Below, in pieces: positions 846 through 44,807 of a DNA stretch of 44,932 bases. Each line of letters opens with the position of its first letter. The stretch's first letter is position 1. A program made the translations under genes and the position numbers. The notes beneath the pieces were generated by a model that was given only the letters and a program-made list of their open reading frames with translations, was not told the origin of the DNA and did not search any database. This DNA is from Citrobacter phage phiNP, in sequence record OR565852. One strand, written 5' to 3'.

Positions 846-1256
846 ATGTTATATCCCGTTGCTATTGATAAAGGCGATTCATCCTTCGGCGTTCGCGTAC
901 CTGATATTCCAGGCTGCTTCTCTGGCGGCGACAACTATCAGGATGCGATAGAGAGCGTGCGTGAGGCTATCGACGCACATATCGAATTACTGGTGGAAGA
1001 TGGTGAAGCGGTGCCGGAAGCTACCAGCGTGGAAAACTGGCTCGCAGATCCCGATTATACAGGCGTAGTATGGGCACTGGTGGATGTAGACGTTACCCGG
1101 TTAATGGGGAAAGCAGAAAAAATCAACGTAACGCTTCCCTCTTTGCTGATCCGTCGTATCGATCAATTTGTTGCCGCTCATCCCGAATATGGTAGCCGCT
1201 CAGGCTTCCTGTCACGTGTGGCTGCTGATAAAGTGATCGGACGGGAAAAACGTTAA
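846..1256 (+). CDS. hicB: HicB antitoxin
   Basis: N-terminal HicB-type domain (MLYPVAIDKGDSSFGVRVPDIPGCFSGGD...) and C-terminal ribbon-helix-helix-like segment (KINVTLPSLLIRRIDQFV). Confidence 0.8.
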   Translation: MLYPVAIDKGDSSFGVRVPDIPGCFSGGDNYQDAIESVREAIDAHIELLVEDGEAVPEATSVENWLADPDYTGVVWALVDVDVTRLMGKAEKINVTLPSLLIRRIDQFVAAHPEYGSRSGFLSRVAADKVIGREKR

Positions 1257-1280
1257 GCCTCGTTAGAGGCTTTAGGTGAA

Positions 1281-1835
1281 ATGATGCGCAAAAAAGAATT
1301 AGCTTTTCTTAAAGAGTGTTTAAGAGTAGAAGTTATCGGAAATAAGGATAAGAAATTCTCATGGGCTCGCACCATCAGACATGCCTGGCGTCAACCTAAA
1401 CGTAGATTTCTTTTCTGGTGGCGCATTGCATCTTATCTATATGGTTCAAATAACAAACAACTAAAAAAAATAGGGAAAAGAATAAATAGAAAATTATTTT
1501 TTAAATATAACACAGACATTGAACTAGGTGTTTCAATTGCCCCCGGATTATATATTGGACATTATAGCGGGATTGTTATCACAAGATATGCGACGATAGG
1601 CAAAAACTTCAACATAAGACAAAACACCACTATTGGATTAAAAAACAATAACACTAATAAAATCACAATTGGTGATAATGTTAATGTTGGAGCAAACTCC
1701 TGCATTATATCAGAAAACATTGTAATTGGTGACAACGTAAAAATAGGAGCTTTTACATTCGTTAATAAAACGATACCCTCAAACTCTATTTATTACACAA
1801 AAAAAGAAAACATCTGTAAAGAATGGGAGGTTTAA
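1281..1835 (+). CDS. Hexapeptide-repeat (left-handed beta-helix) acetyltransferase
   Basis: Tandem hexapeptide signature (IGKNFNI..TIG..ITIGDNVNVGANSCI..IVIGDNVKIGAFTFV); strongly AT-rich relative to the flanking phage DNA. Confidence 0.7.
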   Translation: MMRKKELAFLKECLRVEVIGNKDKKFSWARTIRHAWRQPKRRFLFWWRIASYLYGSNNKQLKKIGKRINRKLFFKYNTDIELGVSIAPGLYIGHYSGIVITRYATIGKNFNIRQNTTIGLKNNNTNKITIGDNVNVGANSCIISENIVIGDNVKIGAFTFVNKTIPSNSIYYTKKENICKEWEV

Positions 1836-5090: not shown

Positions 5091-5532
5091 TCTTTAACTG
5101 CTCCCATACCCAGTAAAATTTGATTTCCTGCTGGCCGTCACCGTCCGGCGAACTCAGGCGAACAATCAGGTTAAGGCGCGCCGGCCATATGATTTGCGCC
5201 TCCACCTGAATATCCCCCACCACACCATCAGATTTCAGCCAGGCCAGTGCCTCCAGCGCGTATTCCTCCGCCCTGACAGCAACACGGGTCGTTAATTTTT
5301 CGCGGCGCAGCAGCCACAGGCGGGAGCCCATCGCCTGAGCCTCTCCGGAATCTCCCCACCATCCCCGGCGGTCAGTGCCTTCATAGTCATCGTCGGCACG
5401 CGCCAGGCGGTCAGTGAACAGGCTGATAATCACCGCTGTCTGGAGGTCATTACCCGACGCCAGTGCGCCAGCGGTGATCCCCCAGTCAGCGTGCATGGCG
5501 TCAGCGTCCCAGAATGATGAAACGTCACTCAT
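5080..5532 (-). CDS. Baseplate protein (Mu gp46 / gp25-like)
   Basis: 150 aa; synteny in the Mu-like baseplate operon. Confidence 0.55.
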   Translation of the reverse strand: MSDVSSFWDADAMHADWGITAGALASGNDLQTAVIISLFTDRLARADDDYEGTDRRGWWGDSGEAQAMGSRLWLLRREKLTTRVAVRAEEYALEALAWLKSDGVVGDIQVEAQIIWPARLNLIVRLSSPDGDGQQEIKFYWVWEQLKNAV

Positions 5533-26245: not shown

Positions 26246-27298
26246 TTATTTTTCTGGTAACGCTCTGATTTCTTCAACGGTCTGGTTAAACCGCTCTGTT
26301 TCCAGCTCGACGCCAATAGCCTTACGGCCTAAATCGATCGCCGCTTTTAACGTGGAACCGGAGCCCATGAAGAAATCAGCTACCACATCCCCGGGTCTGC
26401 TGCTCGCGCTGATGATTTGCTTCAGCATGTCAGCAGGCTTTTCGCAGGGATGTTTGCCGGGATAAAACTGGACGGGTTTATGCGTCCATACGTCGGTATA
26501 TGGCACGGCCACCGACACGGCAAAATACCGCCGAAGGGATTTGTACTCCTCCAGCAGTTCGGAATATTTACGGTTCAGTGACTGGTATGTTGCCACCAGT
26601 TGGTGATGAGGCTGCGCCAGTTCGGCACGCTGATGCTTCTCGATAGCGATCCGGGTGAAAAGCTCCTGCAATTTGAGGTAATCCGCTTCACCCGGCAGCT
26701 GCCACTGGCTGGAACCAAACCAGTGCGAAACCATGTTCTTCTTACCAGTGGCCTCGGTGATTTGTTTCGAGGTAACGCCAAGGGATTCCCGGGCATTCTG
26801 AAAATAGGTAATAAGCGGTGTCAGCACATGCTGTTTGAGTTCACCACATTTTGCCGCGTAACCATCGTCTTTGGGCTTGCATGGCCCCTGATAGTGTTCA
26901 GCAAACAGAACACGCTCAGTGGCCGGGAAATACGCGCGCAGACTTTCTTTATTGCAGCCATTCCAGCGACCGCTCGGTTTAGCCCAAATGATGTGGTTCA
27001 GGATGCTGAAGCGGTCGCGCATTAAGATTTCAATATCTGCAGCCAGCCGGTGGCCGCAAAACAGGTAAAGGCTACCGGCGGGTTTCAACACTCGCCAGAA
27101 TTCAGCCAGGCAGCGATCGAGCCAGCGAAGATAGTCTTCATCCCCTTTCCACTGGTTATCCCATCCGTTTGGCTTCACCTTGAAGTAAGGCGGATCGGTA
27201 ACAATCAGGTCGATGGAGTTATCAGGAAGGGTGGCGATGTAATGCAGGCAGTCAGCGTTGATTAACTCAACACTGTTTATTTTTACAGTATTTTTCAT
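26246..27298 (-). CDS. DNA methyltransferase (N4/N6 class, DPPY motif)
   Basis: 350 aa; IDLIVTDPPYF motif IV near the N-terminus and FFMGSGST AdoMet motif near the C-terminus. Confidence 0.75.
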   Translation of the reverse strand: MKNTVKINSVELINADCLHYIATLPDNSIDLIVTDPPYFKVKPNGWDNQWKGDEDYLRWLDRCLAEFWRVLKPAGSLYLFCGHRLAADIEILMRDRFSILNHIIWAKPSGRWNGCNKESLRAYFPATERVLFAEHYQGPCKPKDDGYAAKCGELKQHVLTPLITYFQNARESLGVTSKQITEATGKKNMVSHWFGSSQWQLPGEADYLKLQELFTRIAIEKHQRAELAQPHHQLVATYQSLNRKYSELLEEYKSLRRYFAVSVAVPYTDVWTHKPVQFYPGKHPCEKPADMLKQIISASSRPGDVVADFFMGSGSTLKAAIDLGRKAIGVELETERFNQTVEEIRALPEK

Positions 27299-28554: not shown

Positions 28555-29646
28555 TTACGCTTTAACAATTACGCCGATCGCCAGCGCCCGATCCAGAAAA
28601 CGAAACAGCAGTTCCAGCTGTGTGCCATATTTCTGCTCGAACGCCGCTACATCGGCATGCAATTTGTCGTGGCACTCTCTGCACAGAGGGAACACGAACA
28701 GGTCATGGGCTTTGGTAGCAGTGCCACCCATCCCATGACCGATAACATGATGCGGATCGTCTGCCGGACGGCGACAACACTCGCAGGGCTGACTTTTAAC
28801 CCAGCGCGTATACTTCTCATTCTCCCAGCGGCGGCGCTTAGGCCGTAACATGAACGACTCCGGTGATTCAGGATCTGCGCTCAATGCAATAACCCTTGGC
28901 TGCTGCTCCTGCATTACCTGCTGATTTTCCTGTGGCCTGCACCTTTTTAACGATCCAGCCGTTTTTATCCTCCTCTGCAGGGCGACGGTTGGTCGGTTAT
29001 CTGCGGCAATAATGTCGCTTTCTTTATATACAGATGGGAACGGTTCATAGGGCATCTGCATCACTCTGGCTGCCAGTTCTTCCGGAATGGCATCTGCCAC
29101 ACCGACATAAATAGCCCACCAGCACAGCTCAGCGATCGACAATTCCCGCTCGCGATTAAACCGAAGGCCGACCAGCACGGTATCAATGATCCAGTCAATA
29201 ACGTTACGGCGCGCTATACCAGCCAACAGATCGGTTGACTGCTCACGAAGTTTGTTATCGCAGTGCCAGCAAAGCATCATCGCGCCCGGGGCGTGTCGCA
29301 TGGTCACCAGCTCATGATGGTGATAATCCGAGTGCGGGTACTGACATTCACCGATATTCCGCTCAAGCCAGTGATCCAGCCCGGAGAGACTACCCGCAGC
29401 ACGGATCACCCTCTCATCAGTGAAGAATGGGATCAGCGCTTCATCCTCCGCCAGCGGCTGCCGGGCATCAGGAACACGGCCGGTTGACAGCCTGGCCATG
29501 TTCTCCGGTTCGGACTCCACCAGCACGCGCCCCGCGGAGAAAAGGCGCATTAACTCTTTGCCCGGTTTGAGCAGTACCACGCCAAGACGTGGCACAACTT
29601 CAGGGGTTAACAGCGCTCTCATGCAACCTCCCGCTGCTGGTTGCAT
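28555..29646 (-). CDS. DUF968-like protein with C-terminal HNH/Zn-finger-like motif
   Basis: 363 aa; C-terminal CECCRR..HHVIGHGMGG..LCRECHDKLH. Confidence 0.55.
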   Translation of the reverse strand: MQPAAGGCMRALLTPEVVPRLGVVLLKPGKELMRLFSAGRVLVESEPENMARLSTGRVPDARQPLAEDEALIPFFTDERVIRAAGSLSGLDHWLERNIGECQYPHSDYHHHELVTMRHAPGAMMLCWHCDNKLREQSTDLLAGIARRNVIDWIIDTVLVGLRFNRERELSIAELCWWAIYVGVADAIPEELAARVMQMPYEPFPSVYKESDIIAADNRPTVALQRRIKTAGSLKRCRPQENQQVMQEQQPRVIALSADPESPESFMLRPKRRRWENEKYTRWVKSQPCECCRRPADDPHHVIGHGMGGTATKAHDLFVFPLCRECHDKLHADVAAFEQKYGTQLELLFRFLDRALAIGVIVKA

Positions 29647-31379
29647 AACTCGGGCAGGTTGGCTTCTACCAGCGCACGGGCAAACGGGGGCGGAACGGCG
29701 TTACCGCAGCGCGCTACCTGCTTGTCTTTTGCATAGCGCTGGCCGCGATAATCACGATCGATAATGTAACCTTCAGGAAAGCCCTGGGCCTTATACAACT
29801 CATGAGGCTGCAACATGCGCATGCCAATATCGACGATCTGGTAGTCGGCACCATCAACCGTTACCAGGCCGAAGCGATCATTGGTTGTGACGGTTCCCAG
29901 CGGTTCATCCAGCGATACGCCGCTTTTTTCATTTCCGTAGTACTTCATCAGGAAGGCGCGAACCTCTCCGATATGCAGACCGCCGGCGGTCACCGTAGGC
30001 ATGGGCTGATCCACTTTTCGACCGTCTTTGCAGGTACCGCGCAGATGAACCAGGTGTGAGGTCACAACAGCATGGTGATCAGTGGTCGTAACGGTATGCG
30101 CAGGTGCATCCATAGCGGCACCCGGCCCCGTATAATTACCGCCGAAGTGTTTCGCCAGAAAGGTGGTCACCAGCTGCGACTTTCCACCACCGCCAGCGGT
30201 TACTGTTCCATTGGGTTCATCAGCGCCGTGTCCGGTACTGTTACCAAACTGGCGGGCTATCATTGGCGCCACCAGGCAGGCGCGGGACTCTTTTAACACG
30301 GTGTGGGCCGGTTTATTTATCGCCCGCGGCTTCGCCTGATATTCGCTACCACCATTACCGGCGATAAACGGGGTAACGACAGCGTATCCATGGGTTTTGG
30401 TAATAGTCTGCAGCGGACTATCAATGCCCTGCCCACGAAAGCAGTCATATGCCGTGCGGCTGCTGGTGTGATTACACTTCACAATAAACGGTGTCGGGTT
30501 GTTCAGCACAAACCGCTCAATACCACGCGCAATGCGCTTCAGCGTATTTTCCGCCAGCAGCTTTGGGCGCTCAAAAATGCTCTGGCAGGGGATTGACCAG
30601 TCGATACACTCCGCCGCGGTACGCCATGGCGCCAGCCTGCCGCTCTGAACTTCCAGCGATTTAGGATCGCCATGTGTTGGCTCTGGCCAGTGAATTTCCT
30701 CACCATCACAGCGCATGACCATGAAGAATCGCTTGCGGATCGTCGGCGCGCCGAAATCGCAGGCTCGCAGTTCGCGATAATCGATGCCGTAGCCCAGCCC
30801 GTTAATAAGGCGCTGCGCCTGCTCGCTGCCTTTAGGTACAGACAGGAACTCGCACACCTCAGACAGGGCGGGATGATCCGCAGGTATGCCGGTGGATAGC
30901 ATGCCAACAAACGCCGCGAAGGTTTCGCCCGCGCGGGATGGATCCGGGCGCATTTCGTCTGCCAGCAGCGGCCCCCACGTTTTGAACTCCTCCACGTTCT
31001 CCAGCATCATGACACGCGGGCGCTTCGCCAGCGCCCAGCGTACTACTACCCACGCCAGACCGCGAATCTCTTTTTTTACCGGCTTAGCACCCTTCGCCTT
31101 TGAGAAGTGGCGGCAATCAGGGCTAAACCAGGCCAGGCCGACCGGATTACCACCAGTGGCCGCCAGCGGATCAACGTCAAACACGGACTCGCAGTAATGC
31201 AGGGTATCGGGGTGGTTAGTTTTGTGCATAGCGATCGCGTTTTCATCGTGGTTGATGGCAATATCCACGCTGCGCCCGATCGCCAGCTCGATCCCGGTAC
31301 TCGCGCCGCCGCCACCAGCAAAGTTATCAACGATAATTTCACGCATTGACGGCTCCCTGCATGCTGTAGACCAGACCAC
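29619..31379 (-). CDS. DNA cytosine-5 methyltransferase with long, internally repetitive variable region
   Basis: 586 aa; motif I DNFAGGGG, motif IV SPDC, motif VI ENV, C-terminal GNAV; ~280-aa variable region with six P..T(V/I)T..(V/L)VT repeats. Confidence 0.8.
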   Translation of the reverse strand: MVWSTACREPSMREIIVDNFAGGGGASTGIELAIGRSVDIAINHDENAIAMHKTNHPDTLHYCESVFDVDPLAATGGNPVGLAWFSPDCRHFSKAKGAKPVKKEIRGLAWVVVRWALAKRPRVMMLENVEEFKTWGPLLADEMRPDPSRAGETFAAFVGMLSTGIPADHPALSEVCEFLSVPKGSEQAQRLINGLGYGIDYRELRACDFGAPTIRKRFFMVMRCDGEEIHWPEPTHGDPKSLEVQSGRLAPWRTAAECIDWSIPCQSIFERPKLLAENTLKRIARGIERFVLNNPTPFIVKCNHTSSRTAYDCFRGQGIDSPLQTITKTHGYAVVTPFIAGNGGSEYQAKPRAINKPAHTVLKESRACLVAPMIARQFGNSTGHGADEPNGTVTAGGGGKSQLVTTFLAKHFGGNYTGPGAAMDAPAHTVTTTDHHAVVTSHLVHLRGTCKDGRKVDQPMPTVTAGGLHIGEVRAFLMKYYGNEKSGVSLDEPLGTVTTNDRFGLVTVDGADYQIVDIGMRMLQPHELYKAQGFPEGYIIDRDYRGQRYAKDKQVARCGNAVPPPFARALVEANLPELCNQQREVA

Positions 31380-32220
31380 CAGCCACGGTGATTATTTCGC
31401 TGGTGGGCATACGCTCAAGCCAGAGCTGATTGATGTTCGCCTTCAGCTTGTTCTGCTGGGCCAACTCCAGAGAATCCGCTCCCTCAACCTGATTGAATAC
31501 CAGGCCAACCTCCAGCGGCCAGATACGCGACTCCACTTCTGGCTGTCCCAAGCCAGCAGGCATAACGTCTTCCACCGGGGCTGGCGGCACCACTTTTTCC
31601 GCGGCAAATTGGGCCAGCGACATAAATGCCCGCCCCTTAGCCTCTAGATCACTGCGATGAATGTAGCTGAAACGCTCGCCCCGCCATGTCTTATCGAATA
31701 CCACTATGGCGCCAGCGAAAAATGCGCTGGTAGGCTGCTGTTTCTCGTCTGCCGGGATAAACCATGCAGGCAGGTCGAAGCCAATGCGGCCACGGATGAA
31801 AACAATATGATCAGCATCTTCAGGCCACCATGTTTCACTAGGTGCCGCTTTGATGAGGAACACATAGCGACCGCCCTTCTCACGCATGGCAGAGGCATAG
31901 CTCATGATATGACTCATGCCGGTGATCGCCTGCTTACCGTCGTATTGCGATCGGCTATAGGGCGGATTGCCGAACGCGGCGCCACCGATGGCGATCAGCA
32001 TTTCCGACCAATCCTGTGTCAGAGCGTTATCTTCGGCGGTGTACCAGACCGGGCATTTGGCGTTACTGTCGTCGGCGAACAAATCCAGCATCAGCGGCCC
32101 AAACATCGCATTGATGCCCCAGAACAACAGTTCCGGCGTGCGCCACTGATCGCCAACTTCTTTTAACTCGTGGACTGGCTTGCTACGTAGTTCAGCCAGC
32201 GCCAGGCAGTATTTATTCAT
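31339..32220 (-). CDS. Phage-type N6-adenine DNA methyltransferase (NPPY) with C-terminal extension
   Basis: 293 aa; WRTPELLF and FGNPPYS motifs of the phage Dam family; ~120-aa C-terminal extension of unknown function. Confidence 0.65.
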   Translation of the reverse strand: MNKYCLALAELRSKPVHELKEVGDQWRTPELLFWGINAMFGPLMLDLFADDSNAKCPVWYTAEDNALTQDWSEMLIAIGGAAFGNPPYSRSQYDGKQAITGMSHIMSYASAMREKGGRYVFLIKAAPSETWWPEDADHIVFIRGRIGFDLPAWFIPADEKQQPTSAFFAGAIVVFDKTWRGERFSYIHRSDLEAKGRAFMSLAQFAAEKVVPPAPVEDVMPAGLGQPEVESRIWPLEVGLVFNQVEGADSLELAQQNKLKANINQLWLERMPTSEIITVAGGLVYSMQGAVNA

Positions 32221-40709: not shown

Positions 40710-40928
40710 ATGGAGAAATTTATGCTGAGCCTCGATTGTGTTCCCATCTCAACTTATTGCAAAGAGACAGGCGAAACTCCTGATGCGATCAACAAGCGCG
40801 TACAGCGCGGTGTGTGGCGTGAAGGGGTTCAGGTGCTGAAAGTCGAAGGCGTTAAGGAGAGATGGATAGATCTTAGTGAGGTTGCAAAATGGGCCAGACA
40901 GAATCGCCTAAACTCCCGCGCGGCGTAA
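40710..40928 (+). CDS. xis: Excisionase-like protein
   Basis: 72 aa immediately upstream of and overlapping the integrase gene. Confidence 0.55.
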   Translation: MEKFMLSLDCVPISTYCKETGETPDAINKRVQRGVWREGVQVLKVEGVKERWIDLSEVAKWARQNRLNSRAA

Positions 40929-42055
40929 CCATCAGGAAACATCGCAACGGTCAAACCATCAATATTACTTTTACATATAAAGGGGTGAAATGCCGTGAGC
41001 CTCTTTCTAATCTGGACGTAACCCCTAAAAATATCAAATACGCCGAGCGCACACTCGGCGAAATCCATAACAAGATCGAAAGGGGAACGTTTGTTTACGC
41101 GGAATACTTTCCCCGTTCTACCCGATTAAAAATTTTCGGAAACGCTGCCGCAGGAAAAACGGTGAAGATGTATCTGGATGAGTATCTGGTGATCTGCGAA
41201 ACGAGGAAGCTTTCCCCTTCGACAATAGGCGGGTACAAGAAATGCCGAAGCGCATTGTCATCACTTCATATTTATCCTGCAAGTGAGTTGACGCCGGCTG
41301 CATTGAAGACATGGATCCAGAACCAGAAAACGACATTGAAGACCATCCGAAACCAGTTGTCATTCCTGCGTTCTGCATTGGATGAAGCAGTGACAGATGG
41401 TGTGCTTCAGATTAACCCTGTATCTCTGGTAACAGCCTCACGATACCAAAGTGATAAATCAGAGGCAGAAAGTAGTTATGTGGTTGATCCGCTATCACCA
41501 GCAGAAGTTGATGCTTTGCTCTCTGCTACTGGCAATAAGCAGTGGGAGAATCTTTTCCGGTTCGCGATACAAACAGGGCTGCGTAGTTCCGAATTGTGTG
41601 CTCTTCGTTGGCGTGATATCGACTTTGTAGGGAAGACTGCCCATATCCAGAGCGCCAGTGTTGTTGGTGTGATCAAAGGGACCAAGACAAAAGCAGGTAC
41701 CCGTAAAGTTGAACTCACAGATGAAGCAATGTCGGCTCTGATAAATCAGAAACCGTTCACGTTCATGAAGGGCGCTACTGTCTTTGAGGATCCAAAGACC
41801 AATAAGCCGTGGGCAAGTGCTGATGCAATTAGAAAAAAGGCATGGGTGCCGACATTGCGAAAGGCTGGTATTCGGTACAGAAACCCATATCAGACTAGAC
41901 ATACATTCGCCACATGCCATATCAGCCGGGGAACAAACTTGTTCTGGCTTGCGACTCAAATGGGACATAAAGGCCCAGAGATGCTTTTCCGTCACTACGG
42001 CTCATATCTGAAGGAATATGATGGACAAACAAGCCTGAAGAAGATAAAAATATAA
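40889..42055 (+). CDS. int: Tyrosine integrase
   Basis: 388 aa; N-terminal arm-binding-type segment (LPRGVTIRKHRNGQ) and C-terminal catalytic region (RHTFATCHI...HYGSY). Confidence 0.85.
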   Translation: MGQTESPKLPRGVTIRKHRNGQTINITFTYKGVKCREPLSNLDVTPKNIKYAERTLGEIHNKIERGTFVYAEYFPRSTRLKIFGNAAAGKTVKMYLDEYLVICETRKLSPSTIGGYKKCRSALSSLHIYPASELTPAALKTWIQNQKTTLKTIRNQLSFLRSALDEAVTDGVLQINPVSLVTASRYQSDKSEAESSYVVDPLSPAEVDALLSATGNKQWENLFRFAIQTGLRSSELCALRWRDIDFVGKTAHIQSASVVGVIKGTKTKAGTRKVELTDEAMSALINQKPFTFMKGATVFEDPKTNKPWASADAIRKKAWVPTLRKAGIRYRNPYQTRHTFATCHISRGTNLFWLATQMGHKGPEMLFRHYGSYLKEYDGQTSLKKIKI

Positions 42056-42058
42056 TCC

Positions 42059-43846
42059 ATGTCTGAATTATTGGCCGCAATTTGTGGCCATTTCATGGAA
42101 CAAGGTACAAACATGGCAAATCCAATAACCAAACTAAAAAAAATAAACGTTGTAAAATTTCGAGGACTAAAAAATATAAATATAGAATTTGGTTCGCGAC
42201 TAACTGTTATTTGTGGTAAAAACGGCACATCTAAATCGACAATTCTTGGTATTATCGCCCAAATTTTTAGTTTTACAAAAGATCTGTCTAAGAACCCCGA
42301 GGTTGATTTAACACAATATAAGACATTAACTAATGGCACCTTCAAGTCAGCTTTCAGTGAACATTTTAGACTTTCAGAACAATTTGATACTGCAGGTTCA
42401 ATGGAAGTCAGGATTAGTGTTTATGATGGTGCATCTAACAAACATCTTGAAAAGCTAACATTGGGTCTATACAGCTCCAGTGACAGGGATAAATCAAGGC
42501 CAATAGTCAGGGGCAATGATTCCATACCGGGGAAAAACCAAAGTAGAAACGTCACTCATCCAGTTATTTTTCTAAGCTTAGCAAGACTTCTCCCTATTAC
42601 TCTACGGACTGATTACTCAACAAGGGATGTTCAGTATATCAATGAAAACGCAGATGATATAAGAATAATGAGCAATCAACTCTTACTTAAGAATAATGGG
42701 TGCTCAGTAACAGCCACGAAAGGGACGATCGATTCAATGGTCGTACACGGCGATAATTACGACCATCAATCAGTCTCTGTTGGTGAGGATAATGTTGGAC
42801 AATTAATTCAAGCAATATTTTCCTTTAAAAGGCTAAAAGAACTTTATGACGATTATCATGGAGGTATTTTATTAATTGATGAAGCGGACGCAGGTCTTTT
42901 CCCTGCTGCTCAGTTAGAATTAATTGACATTCTAGCTAAAGCAGCTAAAAAATATGACTTGCAAATAATCATGACTTCTCACTCACCATTAATAATAGAA
43001 GATATTTTCAATCGTTCCAAACAAGATGCCAACGGATTTAAAACAATATATCTGACAGATACTTATGGTGATATTAAAACAAAAGACAATCTATCATGGG
43101 CCGATATCAATGCTGATTTGCATGTTGAAACTGTAAAAATAAATGATGAGATTAGCCTTCCAAAAGCCAACGTATATTTTGAAGATAAAGAAGGCTTCGA
43201 TTTTTTCAAACAATTGATAATTGATAGAAGAATAAACAGAATATTGAATCCATTAGGAAACATAAATATTAGTTGTACTGCTATCCTAGATTTAATGGCT
43301 AGAAAAGTCCCTGAGTTTACTAACAAAAGCCTAGTTGTCTTAGACGGTGATGTTGCTCTCGATAACAGTGACAATGCTAAAAAAGCGAAAAAAGAGAGAA
43401 GCTTATGCTTGCTTCCAGGCATTCTTCCCCCAGATCAAATGATTTTTGAATTCTTATATAACTTACCTCCAGACGATATATATTGGAACAATAAAAATAG
43501 ATTTACAAAAGCAGTATTTATGAAAATAACAAAAGACATAATTACAACATTAAAAATAAGTAACTATCCTATTGATTTACTAAATTCTATAGAGAATTAT
43601 AAAAAATCAAACAAAAACCATGGCGGAGTGGTTAGAAAACTATTTAAAGATTTTGTCCATACGCCTGAGTTCCTAGCACAAGTAAAAGGGCGAGTTAAAG
43701 ATAATCCTTATCGATATTGGGTCGAGAAACACCCCGTAGAATCCGATAATTTCAAGCATGAATTAATCAAAAACCTTAAAATTATTATGACAAATGGACA
43801 TGGCGTTGACTCTGCTACCATCACTTCGTATCTGTCTGGCAACTAA
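42059..43846 (+). CDS. OLD-family-like ATP-dependent nuclease (ABC ATPase + putative TOPRIM)
   Basis: 595 aa, AT-rich; Walker A GKNGTSKST, Walker B ILLIDEADAG, H-loop MTSHSP; C-terminal candidate TOPRIM Glu (YFEDKEG) and DxD (VVLDGDVALD). Confidence 0.65.
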   Translation: MSELLAAICGHFMEQGTNMANPITKLKKINVVKFRGLKNINIEFGSRLTVICGKNGTSKSTILGIIAQIFSFTKDLSKNPEVDLTQYKTLTNGTFKSAFSEHFRLSEQFDTAGSMEVRISVYDGASNKHLEKLTLGLYSSSDRDKSRPIVRGNDSIPGKNQSRNVTHPVIFLSLARLLPITLRTDYSTRDVQYINENADDIRIMSNQLLLKNNGCSVTATKGTIDSMVVHGDNYDHQSVSVGEDNVGQLIQAIFSFKRLKELYDDYHGGILLIDEADAGLFPAAQLELIDILAKAAKKYDLQIIMTSHSPLIIEDIFNRSKQDANGFKTIYLTDTYGDIKTKDNLSWADINADLHVETVKINDEISLPKANVYFEDKEGFDFFKQLIIDRRINRILNPLGNINISCTAILDLMARKVPEFTNKSLVVLDGDVALDNSDNAKKAKKERSLCLLPGILPPDQMIFEFLYNLPPDDIYWNNKNRFTKAVFMKITKDIITTLKISNYPIDLLNSIENYKKSNKNHGGVVRKLFKDFVHTPEFLAQVKGRVKDNPYRYWVEKHPVESDNFKHELIKNLKIIMTNGHGVDSATITSYLSGN

Positions 43847-43854
43847 TTGATTGA

Positions 43855-43891
43855 AAAGGGCTTTATATGATGGCCATAAAGCCCTTTTTTT
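43855..43891 (+). terminator. Rho-independent terminator between the OLD-like and Dam-like genes
   Basis: Perfect 12-bp inverted repeat AAAGGGCTTTAT/ATAAAGCCCTTT followed by a T-run. Confidence 0.6.
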
Positions 43892-43925
43892 GATATACTT
43901 TAGACTTGACATTTAGAGGTATCAT

Positions 43926-44807
43926 ATGCGTTTTAACACCCCACTTCGTTATCCTGGCGGCAAAGGCAAGCTTTCTAATTTCATGCTTCGGATTATTGAA
44001 GATAATAAGCTTTCGCCTATACATTATGCAGAGCCATATGCTGGGGGTGCTGGTTTAGCGCTGAAGCTGTTACACTTAAATGTAGCTGAAAAAATCATTC
44101 TTAATGATATTAATATCTCAGTTTATGCTTTTTGGCACAGTGTATTAAATAATGCAGATCATTTATGTGCTTTAATTGAGGATACTGAAGTCACAATGGA
44201 TGAGTGGTTCAAACAGAAAGAAATAATTAATCATCCAAGAGACCATGATATGCTAACAATTGGTTTTTCTACCTTTTTTCTTAATAGAACAAATCGTTCT
44301 GGAATATTAAAAGGCGGTGTAATTGGTGGTAAAAATCAAGAAGGGCAATGGAAACTTGATGCTCGTTATAACAAGAGCGATTTAATTTCTCGGATTCAGA
44401 AAATATCAAAAAACCGTGAAAGAATAGATTTGTATAACATGGATGCAATTGATTTCATAAAAAAAATAGTTGTTCAATTGCCTAAAAAATCATTAACATA
44501 TTTAGATCCGCCATATTATATAAAAGGTAAGGGATTATATATCAATCATTATGAACATAGTGACCATGTTAATGTTGCAAAAGTAGTGCAGCATGATATT
44601 AAAACACCGTGGATTGTTTCTTACGATAACACTCCTGAGATCCAAGGTATGTATAAGGCATCATCATTAGTGTATGGAATAAACTACAGTGCTCAAGATC
44701 GATATAAGGGCTCAGAAGTGATGTTCTTCAGTAAACGATTGAAAGTCTTTAAAACCGATGATCCAACTAAGGTAAAAGCACCTACCAATAAAAATGCTAT
44801 GAGCTAG
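43926..44807 (+). CDS. Dam-like (D12 class) N6-adenine DNA methyltransferase
   Basis: 293 aa, AT-rich; N-terminal YPGGKGKL, AEPYAGGAG AdoMet motif, FFLNRTNRSG, DPPYY catalytic motif. Confidence 0.75.
   Translation: MRFNTPLRYPGGKGKLSNFMLRIIEDNKLSPIHYAEPYAGGAGLALKLLHLNVAEKIILNDINISVYAFWHSVLNNADHLCALIEDTEVTMDEWFKQKEIINHPRDHDMLTIGFSTFFLNRTNRSGILKGGVIGGKNQEGQWKLDARYNKSDLISRIQKISKNRERIDLYNMDAIDFIKKIVVQLPKKSLTYLDPPYYIKGKGLYINHYEHSDHVNVAKVVQHDIKTPWIVSYDNTPEIQGMYKASSLVYGINYSAQDRYKGSEVMFFSKRLKVFKTDDPTKVKAPTNKNAMS

Follow-up and report, generated by a model that had tools for sequence, protein, structure and literature searches.

How many different DNA sequences can one cytosine methyltransferase read? 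The question is raised by a gene of Citrobacter phage phiNP (sequence record OR565852; the window considered here is the whole stretch of 44,932 nucleotides), where an intact open reading frame (ORF) on the minus strand at 29619..31379, called mechanically as 586 amino acids (aa) counted from GTG, encodes a predicted C5 cytosine DNA methyltransferase (C5-MTase) with a row of repeated units in its variable region. An initial annotation of the same DNA proposed that these repeats may allow one enzyme to methylate several motifs. Here, we compare the gene and its relatives with known C5-MTases and weigh this proposal against other explanations of the repeats.

The identity of the enzyme raises little doubt. 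The protein matches the C-5 cytosine DNA methylase domain (Pfam PF00145, E 2.7e-20), and a search with the family profile against the Protein Data Bank (PDB) retrieves 3G7U (E 1e-21), the plant DNMT1-type enzyme MET1 (9e-19), HhaI (4e-13), and HaeIII (3e-11). Motifs I, IV, VI, VIII, IX, and X are all present and follow the canonical order, motifs VIII and IX flanking the variable region:

31305..31322, minus strand: motif I, FAGGGG, S-adenosylmethionine binding; aligned to motif I of 3G7U, DNMT1, and MET1.
31101..31124, minus strand: motif IV, SPDCRHFS, containing the catalytic Cys; its counterpart in 3G7U is GGPPCQGFS.
30993..31001, minus strand: motif VI, ENV; identified from the sequence and the profile alignment.
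30723..30743, minus strand: motif VIII, TIRKRFF (RxR); identified from the sequence and the profile alignment.
30423..30722, minus strand: conserved non-repeated subdomain after motif VIII, WPEPTHG...AAECIDWSIPC...LAENTLKRIARGIERFV...; near-invariant in 150 family members.
29775..29819, minus strand: motif IX, RMLQPHELYKAQGFP; identified from the sequence and the profile alignment.
29685..29705, minus strand: motif X, GNAVPPP; identified from the sequence and the profile alignment.

In the AlphaFold2 (AF2) model built with 150 diverse sequences, the catalytic domain (residues 1–250 and ~510–570) has predicted local distance difference test (pLDDT) values mostly above 90; the values are 78–98 at residues 201–280, ~65 next, and below 50 past residue 290. 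A Foldseek comparison with the PDB matched the catalytic domain alone, the matches being MET1, DNMT1, 3G7U, and HhaI at E 1e-11 to 1e-9. The Pfam match, the profile matches, and the structural matches agree, and the enzyme class suggested by the initial annotation is established; judging by the sequence and the model, the protein would be a complete C5-MTase by class, and it is presumably active.

The repeats are real as well. Six copies of the pattern P..T[VIL] are found, at aa 322, 357, 389, 426, 459, and 493 (spacing 35, 32, 37, 33, and 34), a count reached in none of 20000 shuffles of the protein; the BLOSUM autocorrelation has its maximum at lag 34–35, and a hidden Markov model (HMM) of the unit detects 6/6 units. 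When the units are compared with each other, 12 out of 15 pairs reach z>3 versus shuffled units, with pairs 3-5, 4-6, 1-4, and 1-6 at z 7–10. The similarity extends over the entire unit of ~34 aa, which consists of DxPxxT(V/I)T, a 5–8-residue loop, a hydrophobic strand ((V/L)V(T/A)), and an aromatic-Gly linker. The originally described pattern, P..T(V/I)T..(V/L)VT, is indeed found in six copies, but in a looser form, e.g., TVL...LVA in unit 2 and TVT...EVR in unit 5. The position of the repeats between motifs VIII and IX was also described correctly, whereas the length given for the repeat segment, ~280 aa, was too large: the array covers ~190 aa (29859-30422 of the window), and the ~100 aa from motif VIII to the array form the separate conserved, non-repeated subdomain listed above. 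The units, typed as explained below, are as follows:

30318..30422, minus strand: unit 1, class F, candidate variable module, DSPLQTITKTHGYAVVTPFIAGNGGSEYQAKPRAI; unit HMM and class typing.
30222..30317, minus strand: unit 2, class B, candidate variable module, NKPAHTVLKESRACLVAPMIARQFGNSTGHGA; unit HMM and class typing.
30111..30221, minus strand: unit 3, class D, candidate variable module, DEPNGTVTAGGGGKSQLVTTFLAKHFGGNYTGPGAAM; unit HMM and class typing.
30012..30110, minus strand: unit 4, class A, candidate variable module, DAPAHTVTTTDHHAVVTSHLVHLRGTCKDGRKV; unit HMM and class typing.
29910..30011, minus strand: unit 5, class C, constant penultimate unit, DQPMPTVTAGGLHIGEVRAFLMKYYGNEKSGVSL; its EVRAFL aligns to EVRPVL of the Bacillus enzymes.
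29859..29909, minus strand: unit 6, class E, constant last unit, DEPLGTVTTNDRFGLVT; canonical position of the TL element of C5-MTase recognition domains.

Tandem Repeats Finder (TRF) found no tandem repeat at the nucleotide level, and hence the units appear to be ancient, diverged protein repeats with no recent duplication.

The family of this protein is very large. It comprises at least 8000 proteins at E<1e-5 (word-indexed search) and 2727 clusters of 50% identity at E<1e-30 (exhaustive search), and a member is present in 98 sequenced phages, those of Pseudomonas, Vibrio, Aeromonas, Burkholderia, Klebsiella, Escherichia, Rhizobiales, and others. The query matches phrog_116 (E 2e-104); its best protein match, 96% identical, is labelled Erwinia tracheiphila. 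Two samples were considered, namely, a set of close homologues (120 proteins, 57–96% identical to the query) and a diverse set (150 representatives, each from a different 50%-identity cluster).

According to the unit HMM, the close homologues have 4–10 units, which are typed into eleven classes arranged colinearly as [F or H-I]-[G]-B-[J]-D-[K]-A-[A]-C-E; with F-B-D-A-C-E, the query has the commonest short form. Insertions and deletions in this set comprise exactly one module in a fixed register, “C-half of unit n plus N-half of unit n+1.” For example, P0053 (507 aa) has four units, F-B-D/C hybrid-E, and P0020 and P0024 have 8–9 units, the additions being H-I and a second A in P0020 and J in P0024.

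In the diverse set, the number of units varies from 1 to 11, with a spacing peak at 32–39 aa. Clustering of the hairpins, taken as T plus 12 residues, yields two types with fixed places: the E-type hairpin TVTTKDRFGLVTV, present in 100 out of 150 representatives, forms the last unit in 91 out of 117 occurrences, and the C-type hairpin TITAGGxHxxEVR takes the penultimate position. The remaining hairpins fall into more than 20 recurrent classes and 152 singletons, each recurrent class other than C and E being found in 5–32 proteins, at positions 2–10 from the end. These classes are discrete and are kept across proteins 43–69% identical to the query that come from different 50%-identity clusters. 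Re-ordered and mosaic arrangements of units are seen among diverse relatives by direct inspection, and the smallest family members, e.g., P0222, retain essentially the C and E units. Evolution of the array is modular: on the evidence of these comparisons, units 5–6 are the constant core of the family, and units 1–4 are candidate variable modules, of classes gained, lost, and re-ordered among relatives.

Some additional features were observed in individual relatives. In P0136, P0155, P0218, and P0132, the units themselves are mosaic, one hairpin class being joined to different linker (C-half) classes, e.g., a DHH hairpin with an RQFGNS linker, and therefore recombination at the conserved strand between the hairpin and the linker seems to be frequent. 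P0086 from Brenneria populi (941 aa, 77% identical over 85% of the query) contains a Hint domain (PF13403) besides PF00145, and its extra part may be an intein-like insertion or a fusion on the N-terminal side. A 50-mer from the repeat region of the phiNP gene has an exact match in one species-representative genome only, that of Mixta mediterraneensis Marseille-Q2057 (NZ_JACFXY010000006.1, 5412-5461).

Two kinds of known enzymes allow us to place the array. M.HhaI is the reference monospecific C5-MTase, with Thr250-Leu251 as the conserved TL element of its recognition domain. The catalytic fold and the motif order of M.HhaI (PDB 1MHT) are the same as in the query; the difference is that M.HhaI has one TL element in ~105 aa between motifs VIII and IX, whereas the query has six in ~305 aa. 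In terms of position relative to motif IX, which we used to set the equivalence, Thr250-Leu251 of M.HhaI lies 22 aa ahead of this motif (sequence verified against the PDB), and the T-V of unit 6, 25 aa ahead. By this measure, unit 6 is the ordinary TL element of the target-recognition domain (TRD), and units 1–5 are extra copies of it. A sequence search of the PDB with the segment from unit 6 to motif X aligned only motifs IX–X.

The second comparison is with the multispecific C5-MTases of Bacillus phages (M.SPRI, M.Phi3TI, M.Rho11sI, and M.H2I), with which M.BceSV and M.BssHII are grouped. These enzymes resemble the query in that one catalytic core carries tandem short modules between motifs VIII and IX, in that relatives differ by the presence or absence of entire modules between constant flanks, and in that the enzymes are orphan and encoded by temperate phages. 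In SPR, rho11s, H2, and phi3T, (S)PT(L/I)T is found in each mapped TRD, with 41–47-aa spacing; hence, the initial annotation was right that multispecific phage C5-MTases carry tandem modules in this region, each Bacillus module having its own PT(L/I)T. The numbers differ, with 2–4 TL-type motifs, most of them PT(L/I)T, per Bacillus enzyme and up to ~11 units in the phiNP enzyme family. Behind the Bacillus array lies a constant block, EVRPVL...DEPAFTVNTIDRHGV...RIRKLTPLE, whose counterpart in the query consists of the C-half of unit 5, unit 6, and motif IX. Unit 6 together with motif IX is 39% identical to rho11s 417-457 over 46 aa (BLASTP, E 2e-5), and the hhalign alignment of the query family with the Bacillus enzymes is colinear. 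Because the post-array constant blocks align, the two arrays share one topological slot; the positional equivalence of the phiNP array to known tandem-TRD enzymes is established.

The alignment with characterised multispecific enzymes, which had been proposed as a check, thus has a mixed outcome: the post-array block is homologous, but the unit HMM gives the Bacillus TRDs 2–4 bits, and a claim of homology between the modules and these TRDs was rejected. The Bacillus clade is also distinct in motif IV, which has PCQ versus PDC in the query. The resemblance may therefore be one of a shared working mode, not of clade membership. For the Bacillus enzymes, this mode follows a one-TRD, one-target rule, reportedly demonstrated by mutation and deletion in the work of Wilke in 1988 and Trautner in 1996. 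A 2025 review credits the strategy of several TRDs in one polypeptide to Bacillus temperate phages only (PMC12707154). In the limited literature collection that we searched, no paper on the repeat architecture of the present family was found, and none on tandem or multiple TRDs in C5-MTases of Gram-negative phages that describes the repeat architecture.

Relatives of the phiNP enzyme have been assayed. Two of them, ARM81mr_p29 of Aeromonas phage phiARM81mr (59% identical to the query) and ARM81ld_p31 of Aeromonas phage phiARM81ld (50% identical), are similar to it over the full length, share with it the PDC[KR]HFS variant of motif IV, and have an array ending in C- and E-type units. Each contains five units; the first belongs to the TQCAQVKGGHFA class, absent from the query, and the F and B classes of the query are missing. 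ARM81mr_p29, whose gene is located in the phage replication module, has four out of five unit classes in common with the query. Both proteins are 5-methylcytosine (m5C) MTases of relaxed specificity according to PMC5537653, in which Dziewit & Radlinska 2016 is cited.

More detailed data exist for a distant group, JCM7686_0772 and JCM7686_2655, the m5C MTases of Paracoccus aminophilus prophages, to which “relaxed substrate specificity” in E. coli has been ascribed (PMC3925955). The link from the query to these enzymes runs via Pyei1_p05, which is ~69% identical to them (PMC6536676) and 36% identical to the query (E 7.5e-134), and which has ~8 PxxT(V/I) units and PDCKHFS. Like the query, the Paracoccus group is orphan and prophage-borne; it differs from the query in being distant (~36% identity) and longer (~670–700 aa) and in having more units, of other classes. 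In the assays, at least 16 different restriction sites were partly protected, including those of AluI (AGCT), BsuRI (GGCC), Bme1390I (CCNGG), EcoRII (CCWGG), NciI (CCSGG), HpaII/MspI (CCGG), Hin6I (GCGC), TaiI (ACGT), XhoI (CTCGAG), and PvuII, and also of BglI, CaiI, EcoO109I, HpyF10VI, and PauI, with CAGCTG and GCN7GC among the sites (PMC3925955, Additional file 8). The sites CGCG, TCGCGA, GATC, GGNNCC, CCWWGG, CTAG, CATG, GANTC, CCGCTC, ACGCGT, and CCATGG were fully cut (PMC3925955, Additional file 8).

Simple rules do not describe this table. A GC rule was rejected, as CGCG is fully cut; a CC rule, as CCATGG, CCWWGG, and GGNNCC are fully cut; and an ACG rule, as ACGCGT is fully cut. The protected sites resemble a collection of discrete 4–5-bp targets, although each protection was partial. 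By its sequence, the phiNP gene is a further member of this partly characterised family of relaxed-specificity phage m5C MTases (PHROG 116).

How, then, would the phiNP enzyme use its six units? The reading that we favor, with about even confidence, is that the units could act as alternative target-recognition modules on one catalytic core, in which case several short sequences would be methylated. Multispecificity through tandem modules is plausible because the array is modular and because relatives protect many unrelated sites, the many-site protection being taken from the literature on these relatives and carried over to the query by analogy; that the phiNP protein is active, has multiple targets, and devotes one module to each target is what we infer. 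The multi-motif proposal of the initial annotation gains from the modular gain and loss of units and from the behavior of the relatives, but it has to be narrowed: there are only four candidate variable modules because units 5–6 are constant and unit 6 holds the ordinary TL position.

Under this reading, the orphan prophage-borne C5-MTase would be produced when the prophage is induced, alongside the coupled Dam-type enzyme (see below), and units 1–4 would serve its single catalytic core as alternative target-recognition modules. On induction, several short (4–5 bp) sequences would be methylated, probably incompletely, and the methylated progeny DNA would be shielded from many restriction systems of present and future hosts. 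A stronger version can be offered only tentatively, as we consider it somewhat doubtful: the ~34-aa units would be the smallest portable C5-MTase target-recognition modules known, each class would correspond to one 4–5-bp target, a single catalytic core would serve all of them in turn, and this family of proteobacterial phages would hold the first tandem-TRD multispecific C5-MTases outside Firmicutes and form a natural combinatorial library (more than 20 recurrent classes in at least 2700 50%-identity clusters, up to ~11 units per enzyme), with the query reading four or five targets.

A number of observations weigh against alternative recognition modules. The pLDDT of the AF2 model is just 30–65 for residues 290–495, even with 150 diverse sequences (with 46 close homologues, the mean pLDDT was 33), and hence there is no structural support for each unit reaching the active site. 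The unit order in close relatives is colinear, and the linkers show the same degree of conservation as the loops, both of which also fit a rigid repeat domain; the per-position conservation within unit classes, being alike in loops and linkers, does not discriminate between the explanations. In comparison with the Bacillus enzymes, the unit spacing of the query, 32–37 aa, is shorter than the 41–47 aa between the Bacillus TRDs, the hhalign whole-protein probability is 11%, and the scores of the Bacillus TRDs with the unit HMM are low, as given above. Motif IV has Pro-Asp-Cys where canonical C5-MTases have Pro-Pro-Cys or x-Pro-Cys. Among the assayed relatives, phi2LM21_p23 (36% identical to the query, E 2.1e-115) was inactive in E. 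coli (PMC5537653), and all protections by the Paracoccus enzymes were partial and were read by the authors as relaxed specificity (PMC3925955).

The main rival, possible though on balance unlikely, takes the last of these points at face value and assumes relaxed specificity with a single recognition mode. The constant units 5–6 alone would form the TRD at the active site, the upstream units would stack as an extended beta-hairpin domain giving non-specific DNA affinity or processivity, and cytosines in a loose context would be methylated inefficiently at a large number of sites. Relaxed specificity is indeed the term used by those who ran the assays, and all protections are partial (PMC5537653, PMC3925955); non-specific adenine MTases of prophages are known, e.g., M.EcoGII (PMC12707154). 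The retention of just C and E in the smallest members, such as P0222, suggests that these two units suffice as a TRD, the conserved linkers and the colinear order in close relatives agree with an extended domain, and the failure of AF2 to place the array (pLDDT 30–65) does not speak against it. However, no single short rule of the kind considered above (GC, CC, or ACG) fits the Paracoccus table, and discrete, conserved, combinatorially distributed hairpin classes would not be expected for spacer repeats.

The other explanations are less likely. An ordinary monospecific C5-MTase, which would methylate a single motif and whose extra units would be either structural parts of one large TRD or decayed “pseudo-domains,” seems improbable. 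Most C5-MTases are monospecific, units 5–6 alone are universal in the family, and inactive pseudo-TRDs are said to have been described in Bacillus phage enzymes by Lange et al. in 1991; in the phiNP family, however, all six units are well conserved in close homologues, with no decay. Moreover, the two Paracoccus relatives protect many unrelated sites (PMC3925955), and the 59%-identical ARM81mr_p29 is described likewise (PMC5537653). That the protein is not an active DNA C5-MTase at all, being inactivated by the PDC variant or by lysogen silencing or acting on another substrate, is very improbable: motif IV does depart from the near-universal Pro-Cys, and phi2LM21_p23 had no activity in E. coli (PMC5537653), but PDC[KRT]HFS is the usual form in the family (a simple pattern matches about two thirds of the 150 representatives), PDCKHFS is carried both by ARM81mr_p29, reported as active (PMC5537653), and by Pyei1_p05, ~69% identical to the active Paracoccus enzymes (PMC6536676), the remaining catalytic motifs are intact, and purifying selection acts on the gene in thousands of genomes.

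The extent of the gene and its surroundings can now be described. The span 29619-31379 given in the initial annotation is sound as an intact ORF, but not at its 5' end: since close homologues all open with MREIIVDNFAGGGG, which is their N-terminus, the true start is probably not GTG 31379 but ATG 31346, preceded by a GGAG ribosome-binding site, and the product is probably 575 aa long. The features concerned are as follows:

29619..31346, minus strand: C5-MTase coding sequence, 575 aa plus stop; based on homologue starts, the ATG with the GGAG ribosome-binding site, and the checked translation.
31347..31379, minus strand: 11-codon ORF extension from GTG, within the Dam gene; without a counterpart in the 572–575-aa homologues, probably untranslated.
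31339..32220, minus strand: Dam-type N6-adenine methyltransferase gene, upstream of the C5-MTase gene and in the same operon; Pfam PF05869, E 1.1e-43; overlap ATGCGTGA.
26246-27298, minus strand: N6_N4-type DNA MTase gene, inside the prophage early region; PF01555, E 1.4e-42.
43926-44807, plus strand: D12-class adenine MTase gene, outside the integrase; PF02086.

The ATG of the C5-MTase gene and the stop codon of the upstream Dam gene overlap by 8 nucleotides (31339-31346 of the window, ATGCGTGA), and at 29619-29622 its TGA shares ATGA with an ATG that is in frame with the DUF968/HNH gene. Translational coupling links the C5-MTase gene to both neighbours, the Dam gene upstream and the DUF968/HNH gene downstream. 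Given these overlaps, the mechanically assigned starts of both the MTase (GTG 31379) and DUF968 (ATG 29646) are probably too far upstream.

The neighbours of the C5-MTase gene encode Dam, the DUF968/HNH protein, antiterminator Q, and a replication protein (Phg_2220_C), and the locus is the early/nin (replication) region of a lambdoid prophage, which is bounded by an integrase gene at 40889-42055. No endonuclease partner was seen among the scanned neighbours of the C5-MTase gene. Thus, as in the ARM81mr_p29/JCM7686_0772 group, the gene is an orphan in or beside a temperate-phage replication module, and its context is like that in ARM81mr and phi2LM21. The window contains three DNA MTase genes besides that of the C5-MTase, two of which (N6_N4 and Dam) lie in the prophage early region.

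The third, D12-class gene belongs to a low-GC stretch just past the integrase (42059-44807, plus strand; 33–36% GC versus ~57% in the prophage), which encodes a 595-aa AAA_15/AAA_21 ATPase with an AbiEii/OLD-like signature, followed by the D12-class MTase; this stretch may be an attachment-site island that serves in defence or restriction-modification. Elsewhere in the window, past the tail-fibre assembly gene, a HicB-like antitoxin (PF15919, E 3e-45) and a hexapeptide-repeat acetyltransferase are encoded at 846-1835 (plus strand); these are probably prophage morons.

The meaning of the array depends on how it works. If it is one rigid domain, the phiNP enzyme would be unremarkable among orphan phage methyltransferases apart from its unusual repeat. 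To our knowledge, the structural basis of one core serving several recognition domains has never been resolved in multispecific C5-MTases. If the units are independent, natural variants differing by single units would provide a ready-made deletion and swap series, with four units in P0053, six in the query, and 8–9 in P0020 and P0024; such a series could assign targets to modules, yield a recognition code, and support engineered methyltransferases. As the m5C signal is weak in PacBio data, such enzymes are largely invisible in PacBio-based methylomes. If proven, the proposed mode of action would extend tandem-TRD multispecificity beyond Bacillus phages, and it would account for a broad protection from restriction in numerous temperate phages of Enterobacterales, Pseudomonas, Vibrio, and Aeromonas.

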